A stretch of 64,000 bases of DNA from Tubulanus polymorphus (Eukaryota; Animalia; Nemertea). Location: positions 9,308,655-9,372,654 of the forward strand of contig NC_134033.1 in assembly GCF_964204645.1 (NCBI RefSeq), in the 5' to 3' direction. Both the position numbers and the translations under genes were made by a program. Below, piece after piece: positions 5,675-60,841 of the stretch; position 1 is the stretch's first letter, and the number at the start of each line of letters is the position of its first letter. The notes below the pieces were generated by a model. The model had not been told where the DNA came from. It searched no databases and saw nothing but the letters and a program-made list of their open reading frames with translations.

Positions 5675-5763
5675 GTAATTAGACAGCGTATTCTATCTTT
5701 ATCTATGGTCTTATTTATTTCTCATTTTTTGTATTCAATATTGTTAAATCGATTCCATTCCAG

Positions 5764-39500: not shown

Positions 39501-42500
39501 CCATCAATGGTTGAAAAAATTAGCAAAACAATATAGAAAAAGGTTTATTTACCTTAGCAATATCTTTCATCATACGCCGACGAGTAACAGACTTATTGGG
39601 CCTATAGCACATTGAACTTTCATCTACTTTATGGCCTGTATCCGTTCTATCGTTTCTACTGTAAGCTGCAATAATCCTAGATACAACGTCTGTGATTGTG
39701 CTTGTCTCACTCTAAAATCAATTTGTTTACCAACAATAGGTTAAGTGTGTAATCAAATATCGAAACGGGATTGGTAGAAAATGGCGACGAGAATCTTCAT
39801 GACATTGTAAAATTAAACCCTGGATCCCAGGTTGAATTAATCCCCCACCTGGAAGAACTGCGCTTAGAATCGGATTTGACCACCTCAGGAACTGGGGCAT
39901 CAGGTAACACCAAACTCCAAATTGCAGATGGGTTCAAATGAAATAAAAAAAGTGGCTTTAGGGTTATGTTAGACCCGAATTAAAGCCCAAAATATAAATA
40001 AACCAACACGTGTGAAACTGGTAAAAATGTAATTGAACTGGATCCATAGCCAACATATACCGAAACCTGCAGATTAGGATCAAGGGTAAAAACTACATCA
40101 TCTGGAACTGGATCCAGGTTAAAATTAAACCCACAACTTTAAAACTGATATTCAAATATCCGACCTATAACCTATGTCAGATTTCACCCAGTAGTAGAAT
40201 TGGTTCAGGAATGATTAATACTTACACATGTGATAAACCGGTCAATCTGACAAGTTTTGTCACAAACGTCAATCTTCATCGGTGATCCAATAACGGCCAT
40301 GTTAGCCCCTGATAAAGTATCTAGGTTTCCAGTTAAAATTCTCTCTAGATCAACATTGAACCCGAAAACCAGCCATTTGTGCACATGTGAAAGATACGTA
40401 GCTTGCTTAGCCTGGATAAAATAGTCACAGTTATTACCGACAAAGAAACTTAGTAATCACAAAATTAGTAATCATCATTCTCGCTGATTTCAATCGTCCG
40501 GGCATCATCTGTGACTTCAATTCAGACGCGTCAAGAATGAATTCATGAAAAATGAACGTTTGTCAACAAACGAATGAAAGTTTCTAGGCAGCAGACCTAC
40601 ATGTGTTATTAAATTATTTCTAATCATCTAAGCCAGGCGTTTTGATTGCCAGAATGCAAAGAACTCAGATTACGCACATGGAATTTGCAAAACTATGACA
40701 TTCAGTACGATAAACTCTTTAATTGGTACTCACGGCTTTGATCAGACGTTCCAAACGGTCTTCGTTTAAACAGGTTATGAATAGTTTCGTAGGGTCGACA
40801 TGGCGGCTGTGTTTATTGACGGATGCGAATGTCGGCTCCTCGCTATCAATTACTTTTATTGTTGAGATTATTGTTGGTTTATGCGACAAATGAGTTACTA
40901 ACATCTCTATGAAATTCGTATCTAGAATAAAAATAAACAAGATAAACAAACAATTCGAATAGACTGAATCAAACCATTTTTTATCCATTTTACACTTATT
41001 GATGCTTTGCCAAAAACCCTTCAGTAATTAGGAAATGGCGTTTTCATACCAGAGGTCGAGAGGTCGAGACACCTCTCATCACCACAAGTAATTTTTTTTC
41101 CTTATAAATGGGGGATAGAAAAGCATTCTTAGCAACAATAAATAACAAAATAAAACCGGCAAAAAAACAATTTGAAATAAAAAAGTTAGTTGATGTTACA
41201 AAAGAAATTGAACATAAATTATTGAAATTAGAAAAGGTTAAAACTAAATATAGAGATTAAATATCAGCTAATTTAAGCTACTGCAATGTTAGTACATCAC
41301 GAGAATTTAAAGTATTTTTACCTGATAAATGGGTTTCATTGAGTACAGAGGAATTAAAAGATTTAGAAGGATTTAAAATAATCTATCATGGAAAAAATGA
41401 AGATGGTCATCATGATTTAGAAATTGTTGATTAAATTTTTAAAAAATAAATAAATTAAAACAATGAATATCTAGAATCCGAAATGACTTATCTGGACAAT
41501 TTAATTGCTCCGCATAGATAGACAAAAGTAGTGAGATGGTGCCGTATGACACCCACATGGTGATATTCAATTAATTTTTAATTTTTTTGCTTTTTTTCTA
41601 AAATATTAATCCATTTTTTTATTATCAATTTTGGAATTTCAGAAGTATTTTCATTTTTGATAGCAGTTGTTTCAGAATTATCAATATCATAAATTTTATT
41701 TGATTTTTCATACCAACTACATCCAATCAAAATGAATATAATTACAAATCCAGTTATAAAATATAAATATTTATCAAATATTCTATTATTAGAAGTAGCA
41801 GAAATAACAATATTTTCACCATTTTCATAAACATCTTTATTATCTATTTTTTCTTTTTTAGCTTTTTTATATTCTTGTGATTTAATTCCTAATATCCGAG
41901 ACTGTTCAATTTGTTTCGGACTTCTCAGGTTTTTCTTCACAGTTAATTCCTTCACTTCTTCCACTTCGCTCATTTATTGTAGAAAAATTTTTACTTTCAA
42001 TATTCGAAAATGTTATAACTCCAGTTGATAATAATGTCATAAATCCACCTAATTGAAATGATAAATATCCAATCCATTTATTTAATTCAGTCATAACTAA
42101 ATAATCATTTTTTAAATCAGCATATAATCTATTTTCATCTTGAATTGGCAGCATATAATTACATAATTTACTATAACCTTTAACTACATTTTCTGATATC
42201 GCGTCATTAATTCTAGCTGTTCTCGCGGTTTCATGAATCTTAAATAATTTAATAATTTCATCTGATTTCATTGTAATTCATTATAAGTTAAATTTTTACC
42301 AATAAAACTTTTACATTTTCCAGATGCTATTAATATTTCTAATTGTTGTTTACAATAAAGATAATATTCATAATTATTATATGTTGTAACATTATTTAAA
42401 GCACCATCATCAGGAGTTAATTTTGTTTCTGTTATTCCTAAATCATCTAAAGTTTTTTCAATTGGAACATCACCATTTTTAGATTTTATTTTCTTTTCAC

Positions 42501-45500
42501 CTCCCATTTATATAACAAAAAAATTAGTTGTGATGTTGCAACTAGAATTTAACTGAATGTAACTAAAAATCAACTAGATTAACAAACTAGTTGAATTATT
42601 ATTGTTTTTATTTATTTCTTGTTAAATCTAGTTGATTTTTATTCCAACTACCAATAACTAGAATTCAACTAGAGTTTTACTTGATAATTATCCATTCATT
42701 GAATTTATCTGGCCATCCAACCCATTTTACTAAAGAATATTTTTTCTTCTAACAGTTTTTGCTTTTAATACTTTTTCAATTGTATATTCTTGTTCTAGAT
42801 TTTCAGTAGTTAAACTCAATTCTTCTTCATAAAAATACCAATCAACTTCTTCACCATCTAAATCTTCTAATTTATAGACATATGGTTTTGTTATTATTAC
42901 CTTCTTTATTTTATATATTTCTCTCGTAAAATTTCGATCGTATCCCTTGTCAAATATCTTTTTATACTTAGAAATTCTAACATTTTGACCAACTTTAAAT
43001 TTAGGTTCACCAAAATCATCTACAAGAAATGCTCCATATAAATTATTCCAAACAATTTCAGCATTTTCACGTTTTCTAGCACCAATAGGTTTCATTCCAA
43101 TAGAAGAATGATAAGAATTATTATATCCTTCTTTCAATTTTGGTTAAACATCAATCCATTTAAAAGTATTATTTGCTGTAAAATATTTCCACATTCTTGT
43201 TCTTAATGTTCTATTAAATCGTTCAACAACTGCTGCTTTTTTATCCGATTTTGTTGAAAAATATTTAATATTATGATTACCTAAGAGTTCATGAACTAGT
43301 GAATTATCAAATTCTTTTCCATCATCAAATTGTATTTTTTCTGGTTTAAGTTTATCATCCGAAAGAAATTTTCTTAAAACATTTGATGTTTGTACAGCAT
43401 CTTTTCTATAAAGTGGGAAGCTCCATACATAACGACTAAAAATATCAATTATATTCAATAACCACCAATAATCATCATTATCTTTCTTAACATTTTTCAT
43501 ATCAATTAATTCTCCTTGCCACTGTTGATCTACATAACTTACCATAGTTTTACGAGTTTTATATTTTCTAACAATTTTTTTATGTGTTGTATATGTTGGC
43601 TGTTCTAACATAAATTCATTTATATCTTTTTATTTAACTAAATTTTGTGGGATTATCTTATATAATTTATCTTGTTTTACTTGACGCCATATATTTTTGG
43701 TAGAAGAATAAGCAACCGAACTCTCAGGGTTGTAATATAAATTTCTTAAATATTGTTCTTTAGTTTTAGGAGTTTTTTTACCACCCATTTATATATCGTT
43801 AATTTTAACTTTATATTTCTAATATTGAATACTATCTAATTGTGAATTTACAATATTCAATTGTGCGTCAGATGTAATATAAATGTGCATTTTGAAATTT
43901 AAGCTTCCTTTTTTCTTTTTCATGAATAATTGTATTTTACTTTAGTATTTTGTAGTTTTTTCCCAGAACCATGTAGTGAATTATCCTCTGTTGTTCTAAA
44001 ATCTAACCATAATGCATATTTATTGCCGGTATGATAATCAATTTGATTAATATTACAATTTTCAAATGATTTTACCTTTTCATTCATAAAATGTTTTCTA
44101 ATGTCTGGCCATTGATCTATCATTCTCATTCCTTGACAAAATATTTTATTTGCTATTCCTTCGATAGTTATTTCTACTTTTGTTATTTCCGGATTATAAT
44201 AATTATCTACCTTTATTGCGCCATTAGGATATGTTGCAATGGTAAAAAATATTATCTAATTATTTTCATTAGTTACTGTATTATATTCTAAACATATATT
44301 CGATAATTTATATCCCATATCTTTAACAACGCTAGATAATACAATTTCATTTACAGGAGCAAATGTTATTTCGAATATAACATCTTCTTGAATTGCATAT
44401 TTATATAAAGGTGCATTATTATTTATCAATTCAAAGTCTAATGGAATTTTATATTTGCTTCCATAAATCTTTTTTATCTAATTATCTGCGGCACGAGTTA
44501 CTATTGCGTCATTAGCTCCTGATCTTAATTTATTATGGTTTTCCGATTGAATGCCTTAAAATATCATATTATTTCTATTTTTTTTAGTTAACCATAAATC
44601 GTTGTAATGCACAAATAAATTATAATCATCTAATGAGAAAACTGTTTCTGGACCAATCTTTATAGTTAATTTTTTAATCAAATATCTCCCAACATTATCG
44701 ACAACATAATTATTATCATGACCAGTTACTTTTATATCGGCTGATAGATAAATACTATTTGGAACATAGAAGGTATTTTGTGTTAATCGAGGAATTCTAA
44801 CATATAAAGGTTTCATCGGGATTAATATTTGAAGGGTTATGAGTAATTATATGATGTGATATTTCTGCTTTAATAGCATTAGATATTCTAGAAATCTTAG
44901 AAGGACTTATATAACTCCCACTCATTTATTTAACAAAAAAATTAATTATTTATTTTTGATTATGTTTATTTGATATTTTTTGATATCATATTCAAAAATA
45001 ATAGCACTTACAACTGTAATTAAAAATAAAATAATATGTTCAGCAGCAAAGTTAAGAATATTCCCAGCAGATTTCAATATAAAACCAACATCTGATGCAA
45101 TAACTCCGGGTAATGCTGCAGCAGATTTTTTAGATAGTTCCCATAAATATTTTGCTAATTTCTTTAAACCATCCTTAACTTTATCTTGTATAGAACTATT
45201 ATCATTCGGGGGTTTATCCGGTTTATTGGGAGTAGGAGTAGATTTCAGTGAATTTGATATAACTAAACCAATTGTTGTGAATACCATAGTTACAGCTGTT
45301 AGAATTGAAAGAATTTTTATACCTTCTAATTTAAATAATAATTTTATTCTATCTTTTAATGATATTTTAGAATCTGGTTTTATCAACAAATCTTTAAAAA
45401 CATCTTTTAATCTTTTGAAATTATTACCAAATTCTTTTAATAATATATCTTTTTCACCTTTCTGTACTTCTAAATTATCTTTTAAATTATCAATTTCTTC

Positions 45501-48500
45501 TTCTAAACGTAATTCTTTTTGCCTATATTCTATTTCATCAATTACTTGATGATCTAAATCAGACTTTAATTGTTCTATTTCTTCATTTGCATTAGTTAAT
45601 TCTTTTTCCAAATACATAATTTTTTTATCTCTTATACTTTTATCATGCGCAATTTTTTTAGCTGATATTTGTACGCCTTTAATTTCTCTACGCGCTTGTT
45701 CAGGAAATGTTTCTAAATCTTCATCAGTTAAATCAAATAATCCTTTTTCTAGTAAAGATTGCATTTGATTCATTCCAGTTTCAGCACCGGGTGTATCTAA
45801 AGCACTATTCGCCTCTTCTTCAAGTGAATTAGTTGTATCTAACATGCTATCAATTTGTTTTTCTATTTTTTAATTGTAGTTTACTTGAACCAATATAAAT
45901 TTTTTGAATATCTCTTCTCGATGTTTCGGGTGTTGAAGATCTTAATTTATCTAATCGACCTGCATACTCTTCCATTTCTGGATCAAAATCAGTAGGATTT
46001 GGATTTGGATTTTTAAATGGTGAATATTTGTTTATATCAATATTAGGAATTGGTTCTTTTTCATTTATTCTATCGATTGCATTCCATATAATTCTGAGAA
46101 GTTCTCTACCGCCTTTTGAACGTTCAATTGTAGATCTTGCTCGCATTTCTGGACGGAACAGATTTTCTTGTCCCATTTTAGAAAATTGAATTGATACTGT
46201 TTCGTTATTTAATTCATCTTTATAAAACCATGAATCATTTTTAAATTCTAAATTATTCATGAAAAATGGATCATCTTTTCTAATTTGTTCTGTAATATCT
46301 TCTGGTTCAATGTTATCTGTTATATTTTTTGGTAATAATCCTTCAATAACTGTATTTGTTACAATATGTTTCATGTAAAATAATTCTTTTTTCAATGCAG
46401 GGTTTTCTGTTCTTTCTAATTCTTTAAATAATTTTTTTCTTTCTGGTATAGTTTTAATTATTATCTCATCGCGGGTTTTTTAAATAATCTATTAATTTTT
46501 CCCTTTTTTCAGTATTATCTTTAAATTTATCATAATCATATAATATAAGCCCACTAGAATCATCTTCACCTAAATTAGTATTATATGCTGATTCATCATC
46601 ATTATCAATATTAGTTTCTACATCATTATAATCATCATCAATATATCCTTCATTATTATTTTCCATTTCTCCCATTTCATAATCTTCTACACCTTCTAAT
46701 TCCATTTACATAATAGAAAAATTGAAATTTAAAATATAATATTCCTCCTATAACAATTCCTATACAAGCTAATTTAGCATTTTCATGGGATTTATTATCA
46801 TCATTTAGTTTGATTATTTCATGTTGAATATTATCAGTTTTAATATTTTCTGTAGTATTGTAACCTTTTATTTTAGAATCATTATCCAATTTAATATTAT
46901 TAGTTTTAGTTTCTGTTGATTGAATATGTTTTTTATTTTTTTCACCTTCCATTAATTTTGGAGCAGTAATAATCTTTTTATTTATATCATTTAATCCAAA
47001 TGAATTATTTATTGTTGCAGTTTTAATTAGATTATTATAACCAATTATATTTCCCATCTTTAATACTAAATCATTAGAAATGATTAATAGATAAGGGCCT
47101 ATACAATAATTTAATCTAATATGTGATTTATCTAAATAATTTTGATATCTTACAAGGTTTTCTGGAATCGATCTATTTTTATCATTATGAATAGAATCTT
47201 CAAATAATACTTTGAATTGTTTCTGCGCATCAAATGAAGTACTATCATTTCCAACTATTGGTGATCTTGTTTCAACTTGTGCACCTAAAATACAAATTAA
47301 ATAAGTTCTAATTGATTGATTTTATTCTTTGTATACCAGGTTTTGTAAAACCTTCACCATTATCTATAATAAAATTATTCCAACCATCATCAATATCGAT
47401 TTTATAATTATGATAAGCTCCAATTCTATGCATATAATCAATTCATTTTATTTCATACTCTTCACCAATACCTTGCTATTTACCATGCGCTCTAAAATCG
47501 GAATTAATATTTATATTAAATTCATTAGATATTTTATAAAACTTAGATAGATTAATATTATTATCCAATTCTTTAAAATATTTCGATCCAGGTAAAGGAC
47601 ATTCTAATTCATTTAATATAATTCTAATTTGAAAGTATGCATGAAATCTAAATATTGTATGAATGAATTTTAAATCTGAATAAGACAAATTGTTATATAA
47701 ATTGTTCAAGTGATCATTCCAACTTATACCACACCCTGTTGTTGCACAATAAACAGCAAAATTTAATTGATTCTGCCAGTATTTCATATTAGATTTTATT
47801 TTATTATATATATTATATTCATCTCGAGTAAAAGTAACTTCATATGTATTAAATATGTTTTCCATTCTAGAAATGAAAAACTTTGTTTCAGTAACATAAA
47901 TTTCTAAATTAATTAATGAAGGTAAAACTACATTTTGATATGTTATAATACTATTAAAATCTATAGGTGGAATTAAATATCGATATGATTTATTATATTG
48001 GAAAGCTTTTGGAAACCCAATTTATATAATTAAAAAATTAATAATTTATTAATTCTTTTAATAATTTATCTTGTTCTTCAACTGTTATATGGCCATTTAA
48101 ACTTATTATATAATCTAGTGTATTCTTCAATTTATTAATTTCTTTTATATTAGTTTTAATTTTTTCTTTAATACTTTTTATATTCAATTTTGAACTTATA
48201 CCAGTTAAAACACTTGAACTTCAACCTAGCACACCAATTGATATAGCTAAAGGTGTTAATGGTGAGAATATTGCTAGAAATGTTATTACAGAACTAATTG
48301 TAACTGAACCACTAATAATAAGATAATATATAATTTTACTTTTTAAATATTTTTTCTTTTTTATCTTTCACTTTCAAATTCTAATATTTGTTTTTCTAAA
48401 TATATTTTTAATTTAGTTTTATTTATATCATGAGGAATAATATCAAAATTATCAACGTTATCATCCATTTATTTAACAAAAAAATTACTAATTAGTAAAT

Positions 48501-51500
48501 TTATATAAAACAAATATAACAATAACTGTTCCACCTAAAATCCAAATTATTTCATATTTCTGTTGTTCTTTACTTGGGGTATAATAATCTAATAATTTAG
48601 GTTTGTATAACTGTAATTTTTCTTTATTGGTTACCGCGTTATATAAACTCATTGCATCATCAACTGATTGAAAATTAATGTGAAATCTTCTGATCATATA
48701 ATTCTTTGTTAATATAATCCATATAGTTTTGCCTCTTTTCTCTGTATTCTTCTGCTGCTTTATTGTATTTCTCTAATGCTAAGTTATGTCTTTTTTGTTC
48801 TTCTAATGAACTATTTTTATCTATATGCCTAAATAAATAACTACCACCAGTAAATGCTAAAGCGTTAACAATTGCTGTTCCTATAATAGTTAGAATTACA
48901 GAAGCCATTTATTTAGCAAAAAAATTATGTAATTATATAGGAGGAATATATTTTTGTTTTATCCAAATAATCAATAGTTAAATTAGATAAAGTTACTGCT
49001 AATGTTAATTTTAAGATATCATTTATATCAAATCTATCAACATTAACACTTCCCATTTTAAATACTTTTTTTTAATACCATTGAATAACCAATAGTTCCA
49101 ACTGATAGTTATGCTCCATTATATAATCCAGTTATTATCCACTTATTATCACTCATTTATTTATCAAAAAAATTACTATCTTCAAAATATTTAGTTATCT
49201 TAGTGATGATTAATTCAACATTTATTTCATTACTAGTTTCATTTGTATATATTTCAATTATTATTTTTTTGATATCATCGATGATAAAATCTTCATCTAA
49301 TTCGTAAAATCTTAAAGTTTCTCTAATTAAATAAGTAATCTTTTCTACATTTAATGTTTCTTTATTTATTGTTGTTTCATACTCAAATGTTGTTTCATTA
49401 GAAAATGCAATATTTTTGATATGTGTAATTACATCATTAATGTTAAATTTCATTTCTTTCTCACGTTTAAAATCAAACCCAAAACATATACTCGGTCCAA
49501 CAGTTATATTGATTGATATAGTGAAAAAATTACTCTTTACATCTTATAACTAATTCATAAATTACAGGAAAGTTATTCAAATCAATTAAGTATCCATTGT
49601 GATTTCTTACTTCTAATCTGAAATTATTGAAATGTGGTATACAAGGTTTAAAATCACATTCGGCTAAATTATATTTTATTTGCGCTCCAAATTGTTTAAC
49701 ATTCTTCAATGGTAAAATATTTAATATACTAGAATTACATGTTGTATCTTTAGTTGCTTCAAATGTTTTTGTAGGATCAATTAAATTGCAATAAATATAA
49801 AAATGTGTAAAAGGCATTATATTTGAATTACTGTCTACGTTTCCTGTAACAGTTTGTGGTTTAATTCCTAACAGTTTAGCAAAAGGTTTTCTTACCATAA
49901 ATGCATGTTTGCTTTCATCATCTAACTTTATTTTAATTTTATCAGAACTATCACTTTTTATAAATCTAATTGAAAATTTATCTTCACTTCCAAGTTTTAA
50001 TCGTGCTCTTGGGCTAATGTTTCTAAATTATATAACCCTGGTTTTAAAAATAGATGAAACCATTTATTTCTATTTCTAATATGAATTAAAAAGACTCTAT
50101 GTTCAAGAGTTTTATCCGATATATTATAAGAAGAATTACATAAACTTATATTAACTAATTTCAAATCAACACAATTCTTAAATTCTCTACCTAATTGTAT
50201 TAGTAAATTATGTGATTTATAATTTGAAAGTTTTCTAGAATCAACAAATATTCTATATTCTTTTAATTCTACCATTTATTTATAACATAAAAAAATTACC
50301 GCTCATCACTAAAAATTAATTTTAATAAAATTTTTCCTAAATAAATGGATGAGAAGATAGGATGTGAAATTTGTGGTGAACTTATCAGAAAAAGTAATAT
50401 GGCGCGACATATGAAAAAACATGATGAACATTATAAAACCCCTGAAATAAACTGCCCAAAATGTAATAAATTATTCTCAAGAAATTATCTTAAAAAACAT
50501 TTAGAGAAGTGTAAAATTAATGGCGCAACGGCTAATGTTGATAGTAATGAAAGTAATAGTAATTCTGTTGAAGTTGAACCTGAAATTATTTGGAAAAGAC
50601 CTTTCTTATTCTATGATAAGGATAATATAAAAGATCATTTCTGTGAGCCTTGTCGAATGAAATTTAGTCCTGAAAATATAGAAGCTTGGGAGAATCATCA
50701 ATTTCGTAAAGCACATATAGACAAAATTTCTAATAAATTTGAAACTGAATTCAATGAAAGAAAAAATAAAATATTAGAAAAAATGAAATATGAGAAAACG
50801 TTACAAGATAATGAAGAAACAGTTTAAAAGTTAGAAAAACAATATAATGAATTAACAAGAACAACATATTATTGTAAATATTGTAAATTGATTATTACAA
50901 CAAGTAATTCTAATGTACATAATAGAACAATAAAACATAAAGAAAACGTAAGAAAATAAATACCAAGAGCTTAACGAAGATCTATTACTAAGAAATGATA
51001 GACAAAAATGTCCAAAATGTATTTATGAGTACTTAAGACAAGAAGGTTCTGTGATATTTTGTAATGTATGTGGATGGGAAAAAATTCATGGGGTGATTAA
51101 AAAACTAAGAGATTTTCTCATAGAACCAAAATTAAAATATCTAGATGAAATATTTAATATATTTTCTATGGTAGATCATACACCAGAATATAATCAATGG
51201 CTTGAAAAAATGAAAATAATAGAAAATAAAAATGGTGAAATAACTAAAAAAGATATAATAAAAACAATTATTACATCAACATTTAACACACAAGAAAAGA
51301 AAATGTATTTATATTTATTATTTAACGATTATTATAAAAAACCTAAATTAACAGAAACAGATATGGAAAATATAAAAGAAACATTCAAACAAATATTAAG
51401 ATATTATGTGGATAATAGAATAACAGATTCAATTAATTATGAATTCTTTTTAAATAAGATTGTAAATTATTTAAACATCGATATCATAATTCCATTCGAT

Positions 51501-54500
51501 GAATTAACAAACAAACAGAAACAAAGAGAGCGAGATGAAATGTGGAATAATATAGAACTTTATTTAAAAGAGAAAAATGAAATGGAAGAACCTAAACAAA
51601 TTATACAAGAACAATTAAATGAAAAAGAAGAAACCAATAGTGATTTCGAGTTTGATGATATTGATCCATTTTAATAACCATAAGGTAATGTTTTTGTACC
51701 ATCATCTGAAATATGTCTTTTATCATCAAATGGATTAAAACTAGTTTTTTCAACTTCATTAATGTACTCGTGATCTCGTGATCTTCTGATCTTAAAAAAA
51801 TCATTTTGTGTTTCATTACAATTGAGTTATATAAACACTTTATATAATCTTGAAATTCTATATGTTTATCAACCACATGTTTTGTTATTCCTTTTAACTG
51901 TTTAGCTTCATAATCTTTTGTTCTGTAACTATACATTTTACTTGTGATCCCAACAAATTCAATCATTTCATCACCCCCTAATTCATCTTTAAATTTACCA
52001 GGAATCTTTTATTATCATTGCTAAATAGTTCATTATCTTTGGGATAATTGCTAAAATCAAAATGATGTTTTAATGTTTTTAAGTCTTTTGTTATGTCATT
52101 TGTCTTGATTTTTAGTATGTAGGCGTCAGTATTGAGGCAAATTAATGGAAATCCACAGTTAAATGTACCATCTTTAGTTGATAAATCATAATGTTGGGTT
52201 ACATATTTCAAATGGGTTACATATTTCAAATAAATCTTTAACTTCTTCAGTTAAATCTTTTTCTGTGTGGCTTGAATTAAAGCAATTTGGTTTAGATTTA
52301 ATCAATCCAATATTCATATTTAAGCCTAATGAACTGCATAATATATTTAACCCTGATATAGCAACTTTTCCTTTTTGAGCTAAAGATATTGCTGGAGAAC
52401 TCGTAAATTTTTTAGCTTTTCTTTAGTTGAAGTATTACTTTTCACTATTGCATGAATATAGAATTCATCATTATATTTAATTGCAAAATCTTTAGGGTTA
52501 TTTATAAGTATTCTATAAACTGCCGATGATTTCAAATAATCCACGATTCTAAATGTTTTATTTGGATAAACTTCTTCACAGTATTTCTTAATTCTTTCTA
52601 ATAATTTCAAATCTTGATTGCATAAATACCAACAACATTTATTACCACTAACATAATTATACACACCTGCTGAACCATCACCCATGAAAAATCCTTTGAT
52701 AAAATATTCTTTTTTTTTTAATGTTTCGGGTTCTATATTATAAATATTATTAATTATTTCATCAAATGACATATGATTCATTCTTTGGAAAAATCTTTTA
52801 TGTAATAATTCATCTCCAATTTTTATATCAGTTGGTTTTATTTCATCAACATTTTGTTTAATTAAACTATAGTCTTCAGTAACATCTACAAACCCTAATT
52901 TAGTTCTAACTCTATAGATTTTCTTATTTGTTTTATGCCTAATAATATTCTTTAATTTTTTCCATCCATTTCTTGTCCAAACATCCATTAAACCATTTAT
53001 TTGTATTAATTCTTTTTCACCATATGAAATATAACATTCATTTTGTTTTGGAATTATTTCTGAAATTCTTCTGATTAATATTTTGTCATTACATTTTAAT
53101 AATATTAGGGTGTCAGCTGTTACAGAATCAAAATATAATATTTCAATATGCTTTTCCCCAAAAAGTGGTTGTAAAACATTATAATAAAATTCATACATCA
53201 ATAATTTTGATACTTCTAAAACAGTTGAACCAATGAATATAGGTTTATTAAATTTCATTGACGTTCTTTTTAATTTAACTGCTGTTAAATAATCTTCAAA
53301 TCTTTTATTTCCCAAATGTCTAGGACTTGATTGTAAATATCTTAATCTTTCAGAATTATTTACTAATTCAATATCCTTTCTATTTCTAATATTTTCACAT
53401 GTTTTACCATAAAAACTATTATTCATTAATTTGAAGAAATCTTTTTCAAAATCTGTTTTAGATATGGTTCTCTGTTGAGTATTGAAATCTATATATTTTT
53501 CTAACCACTTCGATTGATTAAATTCAATATATCTATGTACTTTCTTTAATTTCATTCCTTGTTTTAGATAAAATTTTAACATTCTATAATGAACAATATA
53601 ATTGTATTTATTATTTTGAGTAAGTATTAATTTTTCTGTAAAAACATGATCTTTCGGTTTTATTTTCTTCTGGTATTCACTTAAATAACTATCATCTACA
53701 GTTAAATGTTCTTGGCAATAAGGTAAGTTTCTTGTTATAAACTTTATTTTTTCAGGATATTCTAAATCAACTACAAAGAAATAACCAATTGGTGCTTCAT
53801 CTTTTAAACTCGCAATTGCGCTTTCCCAATCAGTTTTATCATCATTTTCAACTTCTGTTAATATAAAATTTTATTATGGTTGAGGTTGCATCATTGCCCA
53901 ACCATATAAATTATTGGCGTCAATATATAATAATTTATATTCATCATTTGCTTTAAAATATCTATCTCCCATAACACCACTAATTCCACCTCTAATTGAT
54001 TTTTCAAATAATAAAACCATATCTGGTTCTTTTAATAAATCTAATTCTACATTTGTATATTTTAAACCACATTGCCAGGTTAAACCAGGACTTGAATAAC
54101 AATAACAAGGATCAACATTAAAATGATTTAAATTAACTTCTCTAAATTTTTCAAATATGTCAGCCAATATCATAACATCTGATTTTAAATATAAATCAAC
54201 TAATTCACCATGATTTTTCATCTTAAAATGGTTCCAAATATTTAATGTTCTATTAAACACTTCATCTTTCACATACTCCTCTTTTAATTGATCATAAAAT
54301 TGATCTTTTAATAATTCTGTTACATTAAAATCATTGTGTGTTTTATAAAATGAATAAGGAATTGCGCCTTTATATCTCAATAATTTAAAATCTTGGTCAT
54401 TTGGATAATAATATCGAGTTATAACAAAATCATTATCAACTAAACTTTTTGATAAATTATCTAATGAACTTGCTAGAAATCTATAAGAATCTAAAAATCT

Positions 54501-57500
54501 AATGCAACCAAATTGAAATGAAATGTAATTTTCAGATGTTTTAGCTAATAGTTTAAAATCATATTTTCTTACATTTACACCATTCATAGCATTATATTCT
54601 TCTATTTCTTGATTAATTGAACCCAATTTCCTTGATAATTGTTTTATAAATAGATGGGTATCATAACCTGATAAATTATGAAATAATATTGGCACGAAAT
54701 TAACTTTCTTAGCTTGTAAATTGCAATCTTCATGAGCAGCTCCACGATATTTTGAATTTAAATGATTATGATCTCTAACTTTTTTATAAAATGAATAAAA
54801 ACGTTTTTCACAATAACAACAATGAGTTGAGTAATTAAAATCAACTTCATCTTCTTTGTCATAACTATTCTTTTATTTCTGTTTAATAATTTTGCAAAAT
54901 CACTTTCTAATTCAATTATTTTGTTACAAAAATCATCAACTACATTTTCACCTCTAAAAGAAATATATTGACTTTCATATAATTCGGGATGATTTGATTT
55001 TGATGTAAATTCCATAAGCAGCAGCTCTTTGATGAACTTTTTTAATTGTATTTATAAATGGCGGGTCTTGTGTTGTGTCTTCATTTAATTCATTTCCTTT
55101 ATCCATTGATTTTAATAATTGCTTTTTGTTATATATTTCTTTTCTATCTTGATCAGTTAATTCTTTATTCAACGATTCAAAATCCCCATGAATTACAAAT
55201 GGAACAACATTCTTTAATTTATGATTAGTAAATTTCAATTTATTATCTTTTTCTGTTGGCATTATTAATTTACAAAAATCTTTGTTATCACATAATTCTT
55301 TATGCTTTAGTAACGCATTCTCAGTTCTAAATTTAGATAAACATTTTCTACATAGATAAATTTTATGACTGTTAAAATCACTTTCTGTTCTAAAGAATAA
55401 ATCAATTTGTTTTAACCACATATAATGTTCATTTTCATCTTTTTTGTAATATAATAAATCTATAGCATTTTCATCATCATAATATTCTGTTAAATTTAAA
55501 GCTTCCAATGTATAATCTTTAATATTTCACCTTTTGTCTTTGGTAATTGCATTAATTCGAATACATTTATTTTTAAATTATTATTTTTTTCTATTTTGGG
55601 TATCATTTTTATAGTTACTGGATATTGATCAATTTTATATAATGTTTCATATTTCCGGTAATTTGTTATTCTAAAACTATGCGTAATATCTTCTGTTGGG
55701 TGTAAGCAACTAATAATAGACCATAGAAAACATTTATTATCTTCATTTTGAACATTTATTACTGCTTTTGTTGTAAATGGTAATTTAATATAAGATGATG
55801 CTTTAATATACTTTTCTGTTGTAAAGTTTGAATCATTTTTAAACATTGTTTTACTTTTGATGTTTTATTCCTTTTTGTATTATAAACATTTAAATCTAAA
55901 AATATAATTCCATTCAATGTTAAACCAGAACCCTCAAAATATCTTTCTTCAATATGACGTTTAAATTCATTAAATATTTTTTCTAACTTCTATTTTATTG
56001 CGTTTTTGAAATTATTTTTTCAGAGAGTGTTTGAATATTATAATCCATTTTCTCTTCTGACTTTAAAAAACGTACTTTCCCAGAGATACTAATTTTTGGA
56101 TATTCAACATCTGTTATCAAATCTAGTATTTTTTCTATTATTTCATTAAATTTACTATAATCTTCTATTGTTGTACCTTTAAAAAATCTAAATATAATAG
56201 CTGCAGGACCAATTTTACTACGTAATGTTTCTAATATTTCAATTGTATCTTTTATTTCTAGTGAATCAATATAATTTCTAACATTTTCCATTTAAGGTTT
56301 ATTTGAAATGGATTTAGTTTTTGAAGTTGGTTTTTTTACTTTTTGAGGTTTATCATCGAAATAATCTTTTCCTAAAACATTATTACTCAAATTTTGATGG
56401 TGTTTTTGTGATTCGAGATGTCTATTATAATTCCTTTTTACTATAAATTCATTACAAATTTCACATTTTATTTCATCCACATTCATATTTCCTAATCGTT
56501 CTTTTCTTTCATTTGAATTTTCTGAAGTTTCAAAATCTATAACATTTTTTATATGATTTGAAGATTTTTTATGTCGTGACTTTTGGGATTTATCGATGTA
56601 TTTTTTACAAATTAATATTGAATTACAAATATTGAAACAATTACTAATAGATATGGTAATAAATTAGTTATTCACTTAATGAAGGATTTAAAGGAAATAA
56701 ATATAAATTCGGAACATATTTACCAGATAGATTTCATAGATTATCTACTGAAGATCTAGAAGAAGTGTGTTCTGGTGATTTCCATTCTATACACAAAGGT
56801 AAGAATGAAAAAGGATGTCATGATATAGATTTCGAATAAAAAATACGTAAAATAAATGCAAGATAAATTAAAAGAATATAGATTATTTGTTGATTCAAGT
56901 AGACTTACAAATTATAAATCTCATAATTTATTGATACAACTAGATAGAGAATTTAGAAATTGTGTTGATTTAAAATTAGTAAATATTAGTCTATGTAACT
57001 CATTTTACAATTTATCGGATAAAACTATTGAACAGAGCCTTTTTAATTTTCAATAAAAGTTAAAAAGAAAATGGTATCACCTTTTTCTAAAACCAGGGTT
57101 ATATAACTTAGATACATTGTCTCAAGAAATTGATAGAAAAGCCTGGCACAAATTAGGTAGTGATTCTGGTTTTGGCGTTAGATTTTTAAAAAGTGATAGT
57201 TCCAATAAAATAAAGATTATGGTGAAAAACATCAATTTTCAGTTAAAAAACCTATAGCTAAACTGTTAGGAATTACACCAGATAAATTTTATTCAAATAT
57301 TGATGCTTCACCAAACCTTATACCTTACTCACATTTCCACATTTATTGTAATTTAATTGATCCCACAAAAAAATTCGAAGCAATTGAAGATACAACTTGT
57401 AATTCTAGTATATTAAATATTTTACCATCGAAGAACGTTAAAGAATTTGGAATGCAAATAAATTATAATTTAACAAAATGTGATTTTAAGCCTTGTATTT

Positions 57501-59754
57501 CACAATTTAGTAATTTTAAGTTAGAAATTAGAAATCATAATGGATACTTAATTGATTTGAATAACTTTCCTGTGATATATGAATTAGTTGTAAGATGTAA
57601 AGAATAATTAATAATTATTTCTTTATAATAATAAATGTGAATATAACAGTAGGACCGAGTATATGTTTTGGGTTTGATTTTAAACATGGTAAAGAAATGG
57701 GAATTAAACTAAATGATGTAATTACTGATATTAAAAGTATATCATTAAATAATGCATCAATGATTAATAAAGAAAATTATAATAAAGAAAAAGAAATTGA
57801 TTTAATTAAAACATCTTTAGAATATTATGAATTAAATGAAGATGGAATTATCGATGATATCAAAAATGTATTATCTAGAATATATGATTATCATAAAAGT
57901 AGTAATGAAATAAATGTTGAAATAATTATAAATAAGATAACTAAATATTTTGTAGACATAAATGAGTGATAATAAGTGGATAATAAAAGGTTTATATAAT
58001 GGAGCATTACTATCAGTGGGACCTGTTGGTTATACAATGTTATTGAAGAAAGTATTTAAAATAAAACGAACATATTCGTTTTATTGCCACGTTAAAACGA
58101 AAAATAGCGCGATAGAACGAAAAATTATCGCAATTAAATGATTTTTTTATTCGTTTTACATTGTGATAAAACGAAAGATCAACAAATTCCGTTTTTCTCC
58201 ATTTTAACGCAGCAATAAATCGAGAATAAGTCGTTTCATCGCGTGTTAAAACAAGTTTTTTTTCGTTAAATCGCGCAATAAAATAACTTTTTCTCGTTTA
58301 ACGTGGTAATTTTCGTTTTATCGCGCAATTTTTCGTTTTTAACGCCGCAATAAAACGAGGGAGTTCGTTTTATCACTTGATAAGGCTGGTGAACTTCGTT
58401 TTAATGCGCGATGATACGACTTTTAGGCGTCTGTAAAAAAAAATTGCACCATTTGTGATTTTTTTTACATGGCCTAATTAGCCACCATAGGTTAGGGTAA
58501 GAAAGTGCCTAAACACATTTTTAAAATTGTGCAGCCCCTTTCGCTACGGGGCATTTTTATAGAACTCAGTAAAATTTCCGTGAGTTAGGCGAGGTTTTAC
58601 CGTTGGTACTATTTCGTAGGTCAAATTATGGAATATTGATAATATTGATTGATAAATTAAATGGGATTTATTGAAACTAAATTTATCAATCAATATTGTT
58701 ACTATGAATCGCAGATCCAGCCTACCGCTATTTCCGCTTGAGTGGTACTCAGAATTCCCCCCACGACATATTAACTATAGTCAATATATGCCTATATTTG
58801 ACTTCACACTCGAGCATGTATCATGATTCTCTCTCCGATACATGATACACGATTCTCTCATGATTTTCTCTCTTGTCGCTTATGTGGAACCAACAGTGAA
58901 TCGGTGCAACACAGGAACCCGATGCTTACGGCATGTGGAATTGGTTTTCGTTTTTTTAAGTTGATGAGAGAATCAAACATTTTTAAAATTTCTTTAGGGT
59001 GGTGCTCCAAACGACACCTCGCCCCGCCAGGGCATCGAGCCATCGGCCAGCTATTTGGGGGACTGTAATTTGAGCAGTATTCAGATTTGACCCTAGGATC
59101 CGCCACGACTGAAAACTATTTGAACACGTTACTTCAAATTCTGAGGCTTACAGAGCTGAAATTCAAAACAAGAACCGAACATGATTTAAAATTCTGTATC
59201 CATTAGCTTACTCATTTAAAAACTTACCATATGTTTCATCGTAATAGATGCGCAACGAAGACGACCGCTGACTTTTGACAACGTCTGAAATAATATCGAT
59301 TATTCCTCGCCAGGTAGGGCCGTAGTGCAGATGTTGCTCAGCGATAAAACAAGGCATACTACCGATTGATACCATTGGCATGTCATATTCATCAAATCTA
59401 ACCGCGAGTTGGTCAATCTTCAGACAATCATCGCTGATCACTATTGCAGCTGCGAGATTTGCTTTCATCGCCTCGCAAACTAAATGATATCAAATGTTTT
59501 ATGTTTCACATATTCGATACAAAAAAAAACGTATTTCTCATGATGAAATTTCTAGAATTTTTGATGTAATATGACAAATGTTTTGTTTCACTTACCATAT
59601 TTCGTACTTATCGCAGAAATATTTGATATATCGATTTGAAAATCACCGTTCACAGAAATTCCGCGTTCTATCGACCAGTCATTCACAACGCTTAACGTTT
59701 GATTTATATCTGGTTTCGTGGCAACGGCACCCCCGGATCGATCCATGTAGAACC
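24540..59754 (-). CDS. Gene C: ionotropic glutamate receptor-like / IR with amino-terminal domain (multi-exon, first exon unresolved)
   Basis: Exons 59596-59754, 59228-59479, 40734-40921, 40226-40411, 39553-39711, 38498-38692, 31274-31380, 30960-31053, 30671-30866, 28081-28212, 27469-27686, 25478-25731, 24540-24879 have GT-AG sites and compatible phases. Motifs GFCFDIL, WNGMIG, GPFTVTSIREEVIDF, MFRPF..VW, WWFFAIIIMAMYTADLAAYLT, MQESGMMNRWKRIWW, and M4 LDSVGGAF. Confidence 0.8.
28849..29025. repeat. MITE fragment with AAGGTTCT/AGAACC repeats
   Basis: ACACTCTTAGAACAAAGGGTTC start and internal palindromic GGTTCT/AGAACC units. One end only. Confidence 0.5.
32577..33583 (+). mobile_element. Family 2 element, copy 2 (nested in a MITE)
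   Basis: Collinear similarity with 19030-20166 over its whole length. Confidence 0.75.
33578..33788. ncRNA. Inverted pair of Penelope-like terminal repeats, each with a minimal hammerhead ribozyme motif
   Basis: Plus strand CTGACGA (33678), stem TGATCT/AGATC, GAAAC (33704), GTC. Mirror copy on the minus strand at 33630-33660. A degenerate single copy lies at ~26375-26490. Confidence 0.6.
34620..34990. repeat. Minisatellite, ~74-bp unit, ~5 copies
   Basis: GCGATCCAATGTGTTTGGATAGATTTTG recurs at ~34711, 34786, 34860, 34933. Confidence 0.8.
36148..36254. mobile_element. Short palindromic MITE
   Basis: GATCCAGTTCCACAG...CTGTGGAACTGGGTC TIR with a flanking AAG 3-bp duplication (PIF/Harbinger-like). 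Confidence 0.6.
36660..37016. repeat. Diverged inverted pair of tRNA/SINE-like arms
   Basis: 36660-36762 and 36918-37016 are reverse complements, each with a B-box (GGTTCGAGTCC / GGTTCGAATCC). Confidence 0.55.
41108..41260 (+). CDS. Small basic viral ORF (50 aa, MGDRKAFLATINNK...)
   Basis: Preceded by the element-wide motif TTTTTTTTCCTTATAAATG. Below the ORF-track length cutoff. Confidence 0.35.
   Translation: MGDRKAFLATINNKIKPAKKQFEIKKLVDVTKEIEHKLLKLEKVKTKYRD
41578..41973 (-). CDS. Viral small protein with one transmembrane helix
   Basis: 131-aa ORF with hydrophobic YLYFITGFVIIFILIGCSW. Start preceded by TTTTTCTACAATAAATG. Confidence 0.55.
   Translation of the reverse strand: MSEVEEVKELTVKKNLRSPKQIEQSRILGIKSQEYKKAKKEKIDNKDVYENGENIVISATSNNRIFDKYLYFITGFVIIFILIGCSWYEKSNKIYDIDNSETTAIKNENTSEIPKLIIKKWINILEKKQKN
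41906..42507 (-). pseudogene. Uncharacterised viral protein, split by a frameshift
   Basis: ORFs 42268-42507 and 41906-42271 overlap by 4 nt and read as one protein with a C-terminal hydrophobic segment. Motif-bearing start at 42507. Confidence 0.55.
42677..43788 (-). pseudogene. Polinton-type retroviral-like (rve/DDE) integrase with C-terminal chromodomain
   Basis: LYYNP, WQGELIDM, IIDIFSRYVW, IQFDDGKEF, KAAVVERFNRTL, YNNSYHSSIGMKP, then chromo-like YTIEKVLK...LVKWVGWPDKFNEWI. Contains an internal stop and frameshifts; the first catalytic Asp position reads Glu. Confidence 0.92.
43819..44925 (-). pseudogene. Putative major capsid protein (double jelly-roll), disrupted
   Basis: Fragments ITHNPSNI, LYVRIPRL...NVGRYLIKKLTIKIG...YNDLW, YKIPLDFEL, KYALWLDFRTTEDNSLHGSG, DAQLNI. 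The length, beta-rich pattern and context fit the MCP of invertebrate Polinton-like elements. The fold is not verified. Confidence 0.65.
44946..46705 (-). pseudogene. Large viral protein: acidic N-terminus, coiled coil, C-terminal hydrophobic/amphipathic helices (fragmented)
   Basis: Consecutive ORFs 46466-46705, 45850-46395 and 44946-45845 share one motif-bearing start at 46705. Hydrophobic segments ILSILTAVTMVFTTIGLVI and IILFLITVVSAII. Confidence 0.6.
46677..48021 (-). pseudogene. Uncharacterised viral protein with C-terminal hydrophobic tail (fragmented)
   Basis: Fragments YWQNQLNFAVYCATTGCGISW, IFRFHAYFQIRIILNELECPLP, CILGAQVETRSPIVG, MGNIIGYNN...ACIGIVIGGILYF. A degraded start motif (TATAAATTGGG) lies near 48020. 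Confidence 0.55.
48035..48468 (-). pseudogene. Small two-TM viral protein (disrupted)
   Basis: ATG at 48468 after TAATTTTTTTGTTAAATAA. Hydrophobic IIYYLIISGSVTISSVITFLAIFSPLTPLAISIGVLG, with in-frame stops. Confidence 0.5.
48488..48908 (-). pseudogene. Viral protein with N-terminal hydrophobic helix, coiled coil and C-terminal TM (frameshifted)
   Basis: ORFs 48675-48908 (MASVILTIIGTAIVNALAFTGGSYLF...EQKRHNLALE) and 48488-48697 overlap. Confidence 0.6.
48925..49156 (-). pseudogene. Small hydrophobic viral protein (MSDNKWIITGLYNGA...)
   Basis: Motif-bearing ATG at 49156 and an internal stop. A partial paralog lies at 57962-58045 (+). Confidence 0.5.
49157..49525 (-). CDS. Uncharacterised viral protein, copy 1
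   Basis: ORF 49157-49453 extends upstream (NITVGPSICFGFDFK). Paralog at 57637-57969. Confidence 0.55.
   Translation of the reverse strand, partial: FTISINITVGPSICFGFDFKREKEMKFNINDVITHIKNIAFSNETTFEYETTINKETLNVEKITYLIRETLRFYELDEDFIIDDIKKIIIEIYTNETSNEINVELIITKITKYFEDSNFFDK
49530..50275 (-). pseudogene. Putative minor capsid (penton) protein, copy 1
   Basis: IFVDS...LVNISLCNS.YNI...KPGLYNLETL...FAKLLG...FYIYCNLI...ILNILP...FRLEVRNHNGYLIDLNNFPVIYELVIR is the Polinton penton pattern. Split into ORFs 49997-50275 and 49530-49898. Confidence 0.7.
50345..50827 (+). CDS. Viral C2H2 zinc-finger protein
   Basis: CEICGELIRKSNMARHMKKH, CPKCNKLFSRNYLKKHLEKC, CEPC...HQFRKAH. TAAATG start. Confidence 0.7.
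   Translation: MDEKIGCEICGELIRKSNMARHMKKHDEHYKTPEINCPKCNKLFSRNYLKKHLEKCKINGATANVDSNESNSNSVEVEPEIIWKRPFLFYDKDNIKDHFCEPCRMKFSPENIEAWENHQFRKAHIDKISNKFETEFNERKNKILEKMKYEKTLQDNEETV
50952..51674 (+). CDS. Poxvirus A2 / VLTF3-like late transcription factor homolog (start codon apparently lost)
   Basis: The open frame extends upstream of ORF 51051 to give a CPKC-x13-CNVCG zinc ribbon. C-terminal KLTETDMENIKETFKQIL...SINYEFFLNKI...DEMWNNI matches the A2/VLTF3 signature as I recall it (INYSFFLDKI...W). Confidence 0.7.
   Translation, partial: ENKYQELNEDLLLRNDRQKCPKCIYEYLRQEGSVIFCNVCGWEKIHGVIKKLRDFLIEPKLKYLDEIFNIFSMVDHTPEYNQWLEKMKIIENKNGEITKKDIIKTIITSTFNTQEKKMYLYLLFNDYYKKPKLTETDMENIKETFKQILRYYVDNRITDSINYEFFLNKIVNYLNIDIIIPFDELTNKQKQRERDEMWNNIELYLKEKNEMEEPKQIIQEQLNEKEETNSDFEFDDIDPF
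51671..56600 (-). pseudogene. Protein-primed family B DNA polymerase (pPolB) with N-terminal zinc fingers, RDHxH endonuclease VII-like module and an intein; multiply disrupted
   Basis: INVQNEDNKCFLWSI, IHGDFES, KVRDHNH...YRGAAHEDCNL, FHNLSGYD, FLDSYRFL, YLKSDVMILADIFE, IRGGIS, YIDANNLYGWAM (motif A), KLMNNSFYGK (motif B), YFD/TD (motif C split by the intein), SKMYSY, KGI, FDDKR...TLPYGY stop. Confidence 0.95.
52131..53126 (-). mobile_element. Intein with LAGLIDADG homing endonuclease remnant in pPolB motif C
   Basis: 996-nt insertion between YFD and TDAY. Block A SVTADTLILL, block B DVTEDYSL, LAGLIDADG IKGFFMGDGS, block F YDLSTKDGTFNCG, C-terminal Asn followed by +1 Thr. Confidence 0.92.
56856..57607 (+). 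pseudogene. Putative minor capsid (penton) protein, copy 2
   Basis: Inverted paralog of 49530-50275 (LKEYRLFVDS...HNLLIQLDREFRNCVDLKLVNISLCNS...NFPVIYELVVRCKE), with frameshifts. Confidence 0.7.
57637..58045 (+). pseudogene. Paralogs of 49157-49525 and of the 5' part of 48925-49156, truncated
   Basis: NITVGPSICFGFDFK...SNEINVEIIINKITKYF, then MSDNKWIIKGLYNGALLSVG. Homology stops abruptly at ~58042. Confidence 0.7.
58046..58489. mobile_element. Right half of the same TA-MITE family, fused to the viral element
   Basis: AAAACG/CGTTTT repeats and right TIR CATGGCCTAATTAGCCACCATA. No left TIR. Confidence 0.7.
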
Positions 59755-59884
59755 CTGAAAGCGTAATATCATTCTGAAAGCGTAATATCATTCTTTCAAT
59801 GGCTAGTGTTTTAAATTGTTTTTATCAATTGGATCCATGATTTGGAAATAATCTTGAAATTCCGAGCTCTCAATGACGAATAAT

Positions 59885-60278
59885 TATGGTGGCTGATTCG
59901 GGACATGTAAAAATTTTTTTTTTCGTCCTCCACGAAAACGCGCAAAAACAAATCTGAACGCGCAAAAACAAATATTACCGCGCAAAAATAAACTTTTAAC
60001 CCGCAAAACCAAAAAAATCCGTTTTTGTGCACTAAAAACGGGCGCAAAAACGAATATTACCGCGCAAAAACGGATTATTCTGTTTTTGCGCGCGTTAAAA
60101 AAACAAATATTACCGCACAAAAACAAACTTTTAACGCGCAAAAACAAAATAATCCGTTTTTGCGCGTTAAAAGTTTGTTTTTGTGCGGTAATATTTGTTT
60201 TTGCGCGGTCAGATTTGTTTTTGCGCGTTTTCGTGGAGGACAAAAAATTTTTTTACATGTCCCGATTCAGCCACCATA
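59885..60278. mobile_element. Near-perfect palindromic MITE sharing the TGGTGGCTGA TIR
   Basis: TATGGTGGCTGATTCGGGACATGTAAAA...TTTTACATGTCCCGATTCAGCCACCATA, with long inverted arms. Confidence 0.85.
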
Positions 60279-60841
60279 AATAAGTGTGCCCCGTTCATTG
60301 GATTCTACATGGATGAAACCGACGGGAGTTTTTTATTTGCTATATGTCAATACGACATATGGCAATTTAAATCGAAAGCTCTAGCGGAAACATCTGTTTC
60401 ATATCTTGACAGGTCGAAATGAGCGATGGCACTTTGTCGAGGCACGTTGTAGAAACTAAACATTAGTGAGAGTGATTGATGCATAAAAACTGTCAAAAGC
60501 ACCCTCAAAAACCGGAAAAACAATGGGTGATAATTAACATTTCATCACAAATAAAATCAAACACACGGTATCGCAACAATTTATTAAGTAGCACCTTGCT
60601 TTAAAAAATTCATGTCGAGAAGAGGTGAAAACCTCGAATTCGATTTATTTTAATTGCACCCGGTTCAGTAATAACTTAACTCCATAATCCCTCGCCGATA
60701 GATCATCATGAGCTCCGAAATCCGAGATGACACGAGTGCAGCATGCATTATTTCTTCGTTCGTACTGACAAATGAAAACCCGGCAGCTGCATTGTTCGGG
60801 CGATCTTTTTTCTAATAAGGGAAACTGTGTATGCATTCTTC

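Follow-up and report, generated by a model that had tools for sequence, protein, structure and literature searches.

The window, meaning the whole stretch of 64,000 nucleotides that was analysed, carries an AT-rich island in which nearly all genes start at the motif TAAATG. This gene-start motif is lineage-specific, is kept in intact relatives and is, judged from its letters, shaped like a poxvirus post-replicative initiator. Positions 41052 to ~56660 of the island are read, from sequence, as a dead, truncated Maverick/Polinton to which a piece of a sister element is joined. We put at about even the chance that this Polinton lineage depends for transcription, virophage-style, on the RNA polymerase of a pox-type virus infecting the same cell. 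A sequence-only reading had argued that three independent features (TAAATG and T5NT signals, an A2/VLTF3-like factor and a giant-virus-like PolB intein) bespeak one lifestyle, that of an integrating NCLDV parasite. TAAATG, VLTF3 and the intein all exist, but they do not form one package and T5NT fails. The parasite proposal draws support from the start motif and from the poxviral best VLTF3 matches; the intein and T5NT give it none.

The island and its host flanks

GC content is 24% in the 41052-58062 island and 38% and 36% in its flanks, in agreement with the earlier description of an element far more AT-rich than its host. Flanking exons, which belong to ligand-gated ion channel and PAN-domain genes, point to an animal host, with phylum and habitat beyond their reach; of the marine invertebrate host proposed earlier, the animal part stands and the rest finds no support in the flanks. 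Ionotropic glutamate receptor-like host exons lie at 11861-13890 and 24540-24956 and a PAN-domain exon at 1037-1456. The host DNA also contains a repetitive, Thr/Lys/Asn-rich, single-exon ORF of 1855 aa (5748-11315) and MITE-like inverted repeats at 58061-58373, 59881-60282 and 60851-62708, the first of which starts exactly where the element fragment ends. The stretch is partly present in 4 of the 10 sequencing-run rows listed, all from one study, and there is no RNA run among the matches listed. The features of the island are as follows.

41052..41070, + strand: left terminus, a short tandem 8-mer repeat; terminus and 9 flanking bases common to L028
41108..41431, + strand: terminal gene A, broken; L024 and L027 have a homologue of 121-128 aa next to their polymerase; T-run and TAAATG start
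41578..41973, - strand: 131-aa ORF conserved in L025; TAAATG start
41906..42507, - strand: frameshifted homologue of a 211-aa L025 gene; TAAATG start
42730..43788, - strand: rve integrase with two in-frame stops; PF00665 E 8e-10; 58% identity to the intact L025 integrase; TAAATG start
43920..44925, - strand: major capsid protein, broken; 31% identity to the L087 capsid ORF, tblastn E 5e-43; TAAATG start
44946..46705, - strand: acidic, coiled-coil and hydrophobic ORF pieces; TAAATG at 46705
46677..48021, - strand: ORF pieces; T-run in the 5' region, no intact start codon
48041..49156, - strand: small-gene cluster; TAAATG at the gene starts 48468, 48908 and 49156; L054 has a 138-aa homologue of the 48908 gene
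49157..49543, - strand: gene C, a small helical protein; no intact TAAATG start
49530..50275, - strand: candidate gene for the minor capsid (penton), frameshifted; weakly supported by a profile; TAAATG start
50345..51674, + strand: zinc-finger and VLTF3/A2-like gene in three pieces; a single 697-aa ORF in L028; starts at TAAATG, divergently from the penton gene
51672..56663, - strand: protein-primed family B DNA polymerase (pPolB) with many stops and frameshifts, 5' end missing; PF03175 E 4e-13; 80% identity to L028 over 579 aa
52131..53126, - strand: Pol-c intein with LAGLIDADG block; frameshift near 52380
56660..58062, + strand: reversed sister-element fragment with copies of gene A, penton, gene C and small genes; TAAATG at 56856 and 57962

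The pieces at 44946..46705 are probably one broken gene, to which no homologue was found among the fetched loci. Pfam Capsid_N is reached only below cut-off, in the window capsid and the L087 ORF alike. The penton ORF scores E 1.4e-4 with a profile made from 7 motif-picked putative pentons and is not significant by hhalign. No RNA polymerase subunit gene was found in the island. Comparison of the gene A profile and the 47479-48021 ORF with the PDB, and of the gene C fold with BFVD, gave nothing significant; other ORFs without an assigned function were checked by Pfam scan only. Repeated short palindromic words occupy 42510-42730, between the integrase and the next gene.

The element had been taken as a single unit at 41070..58045. 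Its Polinton part, from 41052 to ~56660, stands, and the remainder is the reversed fragment, a 1.4-kb piece with 76% identity to 49055-50281 in inverted orientation. A 1.2-kb inverted duplicate was considered as a terminal repeat and ruled out by its 76% identity, internal position and coding content. The left terminus is the only one detected: the window holds no detectable right-hand inverted repeat, and the TIR/target-site-duplication signature was not found. In the stretch 41043-41070, the 9 bases that precede the terminal repeat are identical to those of L028 (~176-205) and near-identical to those of L027 (~210-236), and the wider flanks differ, which suggests either a target-site preference or a terminus that lies slightly further out. 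The polymerase adjoins the reversed piece and lacks ~19 first codons relative to L028. Searches with 13 locus ATPases (tblastn and profile) found no match in the window for an A32-like packaging ATPase, so the copy is filed as a truncated remnant rather than a complete member; six motif-picked candidate queries gave no significant match there for a maturation protease. Stops or frameshifts occur in the polymerase, integrase, capsid and VLTF3 genes. Every core gene is thus disrupted and the copy is dead, as had been claimed. The absence of introns, which is usual for Polintons, was rejected as evidence.

Relatives

The polymerase search returned 5064 proteins, with a close group at 57-67% to the intact pPolB P0001 among the 120 matches listed. 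Loci were fetched with an alignment of ten close polymerases (22 IMG/VR loci, 80 of 220 metagenome loci and 18 genome-bin loci); scans of IMG/VR with single polymerase queries and with the terminus gave no match. The 18 genome-bin contigs (L184-L201) carry Polinton polymerases within prokaryotic bins and are probably mis-binned. The nearest relatives, L024-L028, have polymerase identities of 69-80% and form with the window a starred clade in a FastTree of 82 rows, from which alignments of <380 residues and most of P0141-P0245 were excluded; the window polymerase nests among pPolBs. This tree and the intein tree below are quick trees without bootstrap. L024-L028 are partial contigs of 3.8-7.2 kb. 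L024-L026 are near-identical, and the clade therefore represents three independent lineages besides the window. The polymerase of another locus, L009, is placed far from this clade; L009 also has a protease-like N-terminus fused to an integrase and chromodomain.

The gene-start motif

Exact TAAATG occurs at 13 of the 15 assigned starts in the window compared to 54/687 ATGs in the background (p 2e-12, with a 16th, startless gene scored as a miss). The combination of a T-run and a following TAAATG is found 10 times where 1.4 are expected, with a maximum of 5 in 200 shuffles, and the earlier claim that TAAATG marks most gene starts is borne out. Some starts of broken genes in the window were assigned with the motif in view, and the less biased count comes from automatic first-ATG calls in relatives, which have TAAATG at 21/25 starts in seven loci (L009, L024-L028 and L054). 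These divide into 11/14 in L024-L028 and 10/11 in L009 and L054 together, the latter pair having been chosen after their counts were seen. In 113 other pPolB loci the motif stands at 25/538 starts (5%).

Several ordinary causes can be set aside. AT-richness is ruled out because TAAATG is found at 4/64 starts in other pPolB loci with ≤30% GC and at 13/133 where the 30 bases upstream are ≥85% AT, and because L009 has it at 7/7 starts at 38% GC; L054 has it at 3/4, and the pair lies at 35-38% GC. Base -3 is T in 24/25 starts of the relatives and A in 301/538 at other pPolB loci. T at -3 is the opposite of the Kozak preference, and Kozak context is ruled out as the cause. Both the motif and the T-run are present ahead of the terminal gene and of the two divergent starts, positions that rule out stop-start coupling. 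Another explanation would make TAAATG a translational signal, with an in-frame stop guarding start codons in packed genes, or else an inherited relic left over from a helper-dependent ancestor. TAA is indeed a stop codon in frame with ATG, and the genes are tightly packed. However, TAA alone is used, never TAG or TGA; the motif is also found at starts that no other gene precedes, comes with a T-run ahead of it, and is kept in the window clade and in distant L009 but is absent from equally compact Polintons. We regard this explanation as improbable.

T occupies the tenth base upstream at 11/13 TAAATG starts in the window versus 15/41 other TAAATG sites (p 0.004), and in relatives at 4/10 clade starts and 4/10 L009/L054 starts. 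Upstream regions of the relatives are A-rich, like intermediate promoters. The T-run is better read as part of the promoter rather than as a terminator. The sequence-only reading had treated T5NT as a signal, which does not hold: 108 sites were observed versus 145 ± 14 expected, and T5NT lies at only 5/30 gene ends, 2 of which are the upstream T-run of the next gene. T5NT is therefore rejected as a terminator on its lack of enrichment and its scarcity at gene ends. A search of IMG/VR with the long promoter pattern found one locus, a giant-virus bin with TAAATG at 4/11 starts, and no pox-like contig. L008 and L087 have TATA-rich gene starts, L002, L004 and L191 A-rich ones, and L194 and L197 a CATC signature; such differences among Polinton-like loci might reflect different helpers or hosts.

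The VLTF3/A2-like gene

A VLTF3/A2-like C-terminal domain lies in the ORF at 50952-51674. Direct Pfam scanning missed VLTF3 in this ORF and in P0246, P0247 and P0248. A phmmer search of 1.84 billion proteins gave four matches: the L028 protein, two unnamed proteins and P0249 (E 9e-4). P0249, an A2L-type protein of 226 aa (PF04947 E 1e-24), is the sole one with a Pfam VLTF3 label, and hhalign relates the window protein to it at 95.5%. In a Foldseek search of BFVD with a structure model of mean pLDDT 67, VLTF3s occupy the top ranks, led by entomopoxvirus (E 1.8e-5) and cowpox (3.8e-5) proteins, with pandoravirus, mimivirus-like and other non-pox giant viruses following at E 6e-4 to 1e-2. The same model has no significant match in the PDB, where the best hit is a chain of a Pol II initiation complex (E 0.23), which we take to be TFIIB. 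A word-index search with the ORF found 0/178 candidates, and a scan of IMG/VR with the VLTF3 alignment gave no match.

The distribution of the gene is patchy. The zinc-finger fusion is whole in L028 and is convergent with the polymerase there and in the window, and a different gene occupies its position in L024, L025 and L027. Among L001-L102, VLTF3 was found in L028 only, with a narrow profile in which L028 was itself included. L009 has the TAAATG motif and no VLTF3 in its 9 kb; L200 has a weak profile match (E 8e-4) that lacks Pfam support and was excluded from counts. The A2/VLTF3-like factor of the earlier reading is thus confirmed in family and fold but not as a constant part of the lineage. 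A VLTF3 homologue has been recorded in coral polintoviruses, citing Krupovic and Koonin 2016 (PMC11131425), and mriyaviruses, which are considered nuclear, have VLTF3 but no RNA polymerase (PMC11253617). Because of these occurrences VLTF3 on its own does not mark a cytoplasmic lifestyle.

In a rival explanation the element is autonomous and nuclear: a TFIIB-like VLTF3, its own or supplied by a sister element, would direct host Pol II to TAAATG, with motif and factor both captured from a pox-like virus and no present helper. The mriyaviruses lend it weight, as does the Pol II initiation-complex chain as best, non-significant PDB match, and the window element is integrated, as are L027 and L028, judged by their higher-GC flanks. 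Against it, VLTF3 is patchy where the motif is constant, and if Pol II started within TAAATG the leader would measure 2-3 bases. Such a short leader is poorly translated by scanning. Reading the motif as a TATA element would place the start inside the coding region. We consider a nuclear, helper-free element unlikely.

The Pol-c intein

The intein at 52131-53126 has 62% identity to that of P0001. It is inserted between Asp and Thr of motif C, with an N-terminal Ser, a C-terminal Asn and Thr at +1, and the penultimate His is missing in both. Among 120 listed of 137 matches in the intein search, the top two hosts are pPolBs, and the others include 108 RNA-primed PolBs and 9 type II topoisomerases; the insertion site is common to all extracted polymerase inteins. 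The best 80 IMG/VR loci include 26 giant-virus bins by contig name, and the site is YGD in 63/80. P0004, a near intein host, is T4-like, and 1 of 50,697 phage records matches the intein.

Five pPolB inteins form one group (SH-aLRT 99) nested among others in a quick tree of 45 inteins, from which short, long and unextractable inteins were left out. The intein occurs in at least 5 of 120 listed pPolBs and in 0/120 pPolB loci, and the site is empty in the closest polymerases (P0132, P0133, P0135 and L024-L028). The same intein is scattered over the Polinton polymerases P0002, P0140, P0149, P0203 and P0226. The P0002 extein is a clearly different pPolB type, which argues for homing of the intein between Polinton groups. 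The simplest reading of these sequences is that the intein entered Polintons once, long ago, and afterwards spread by homing and was lost in places. What had been called a giant-virus-like PolB intein is LAGLIDADG-type, at the Pol-c site and with giant-virus and phage kin; however, it belongs to a Polinton clade of its own and is lacking in the closest relatives. None of the matches listed in the intein search was identified as having a poxvirus host, and the intein is therefore no corroboration of a pox-type helper.

Co-occurrence of the three features in intact elements had been named in advance as a refutation test, and the intein, absent from the closest relatives, fails it in part. TAAATG is constant, and VLTF3 is present in L028 and replaced in L024, L025 and L027.

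Endonuclease insertions in pPolB have been described as possibly derived from inteins (PMC11071308). The available text of the source paper for these insertions reports HNH and VSR domains and does not use the word intein (PMC10748475), and beyond the remark in PMC11071308 no description of inteins in Polinton polymerases was found in the literature searched, a scope short of supplements and most subscription papers.

With a clade of inteins that moves from one Polinton polymerase to another, inteins come to lie in the nuclear DNA of animals, to our knowledge an unusual location.

Intein kinship also bears on the kind of helper, which could be a large DNA virus other than a poxvirus (asfar-like, egovirus-like or of another kind) whose TAAATG initiator is a coincidence. 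The nearest non-Polinton hosts of the intein are giant-virus and T4-like polymerases, not poxviruses; non-pox VLTF3s match the window protein nearly as well as poxviral ones; and TAAAN initiators are also used by yeast cytoplasmic linear elements (PMC6211774). Yet TAAATG stands at only 57/553 starts (10%) in the 80 intein-bearing viral loci, the top two structural matches of VLTF3 are poxviral, and published late motifs differ, with TATATA in ASFV and TCTA in CroV (PMC5294985). A helper of this kind is, in our estimate, a distinctly improbable one, and a pox-type helper is preferred.

A proposed pox-type helper

Under the preferred explanation, intact members of the lineage would lie silent in a host chromosome until a pox-type virus co-infects the cell. 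Transcription would start within AAA and give nearly leaderless mRNAs, probably with 5'-oligo(A), as in vaccinia. The VLTF3 of the element may help to recruit the helper polymerase, as an optional aid. Replication would proceed by protein priming and packaging would use the element's own capsid, after which the rve integrase could return the genome to the germline. The intein would be an older mark of large-DNA-virus co-infection that has since moved among Polinton polymerases, and it falls outside the pox-type module. The weak step is how machinery of the cytoplasm would first activate a provirus in the nucleus. The trigger proposed for mavirus is a viral late factor that enters the nucleus (10.1101/068312), which also speaks for the autonomous nuclear explanation.

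A wider proposal, which we hold tentatively and with somewhat less conviction, is that several animal Maverick lineages are integrated poxvirus virophages in which TAAATG converged or was exchanged, and that some of them took up the A2 late factor and use it to redirect the polymerase of the helper. If so, TAAATG at Polinton gene starts would be a genomic fossil of pox-type viruses in invertebrate groups without described ones, and each Polinton lineage would reveal its helper through its start motif. If the helper explanation of the present lineage is true, animals carry mavirus-like inducible elements, and pox-type viruses are predicted in their hosts. A lineage-specific poxvirus-type initiator provides a cheap, direct handle on the helper dependence of Mavericks, and the start motif can serve as a sequence marker for sorting Polintons by likely helper.

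Comparison with known systems

The element resembles other Mavericks/Polintons (Polintoviricetes; 'adintoviruses', PMC8502044) in its pPolB, rve integrase, Maverick-type major capsid, probable penton, size of ~16 kb and integration in an animal genome. It differs in its VLTF3, its Pol-c intein and the presence of TAAATG at almost every start, as against 5% in other pPolB loci, and this copy differs from complete Mavericks in lacking a detectable ATPase, protease and right terminus. Animal Mavericks are described as having no observed virions (10.64898/2026.06.19.733378).

The intein resembles the Pol-c inteins of giant-virus and T4-like PolBs in its motif C site, N-terminal block, C-terminal Asn and LAGLIDADG endonuclease. 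In contrast to theirs, its host is a protein-primed Polinton polymerase, and five such inteins form their own clade. Coral polintoviruses likewise have a VLTF3 homologue inside an animal Polinton; the available text of that report (PMC11131425) holds no promoter or intein analysis.

Vaccinia promoters are the closest likeness of the start motif. Late promoters have TAAAT with G over the start codon (PMC11980589, PMC5294985), and the late consensus has a conserved T ten bases upstream (PMC11980589); the vaccinia polymerase slips on AAA to produce 5' poly(A) leaders, and the TAAAN of yeast cytoplasmic linear elements is similar (PMC6211774). The element shares with vaccinia intermediate and late promoters (PMC11980589, PMC5294985) the TAAAT followed by G/A over the start codon, a T-rich upstream region and, in the window copy, T at -10. 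Unlike vaccinia late promoters, the gene starts of the relatives are A-rich upstream and closer to the intermediate class, and one motif, a putative promoter, serves all genes of the element, polymerase and integrase included. No title or abstract on a TAAATG motif in animal Polintons was found in the literature searched, supplements and most subscription papers being outside its scope.

Two systems offer precedents for dependence on a large virus. In mavirus/CroV (10.1101/068312) the small virus also integrates and its gene starts resemble the late promoter of the large virus; there dependence is shown by experiment, with a protist host, a virophage-type capsid and another motif, whereas the present element is known from sequence alone and its capsid matches Polinton-type loci. 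Polinton-like genomes found in entomopoxvirus occlusion bodies (AHEV_PLV1/2 and CBEV_PLV1) are likewise animal Polinton-related elements and have been proposed as poxvirus hyperparasites (PMC11296320). They were found physically in the occlusion bodies and lack an rve integrase, whereas the link of the window element to poxviruses is promoter-like sequence alone; the main text of that paper does not contain 'promoter', 'motif' or 'VLTF'. The general idea of poxvirus-parasitic Polintons therefore has precedent, and to it the present lineage adds a promoter signal that is strong, lineage-specific and directly testable.
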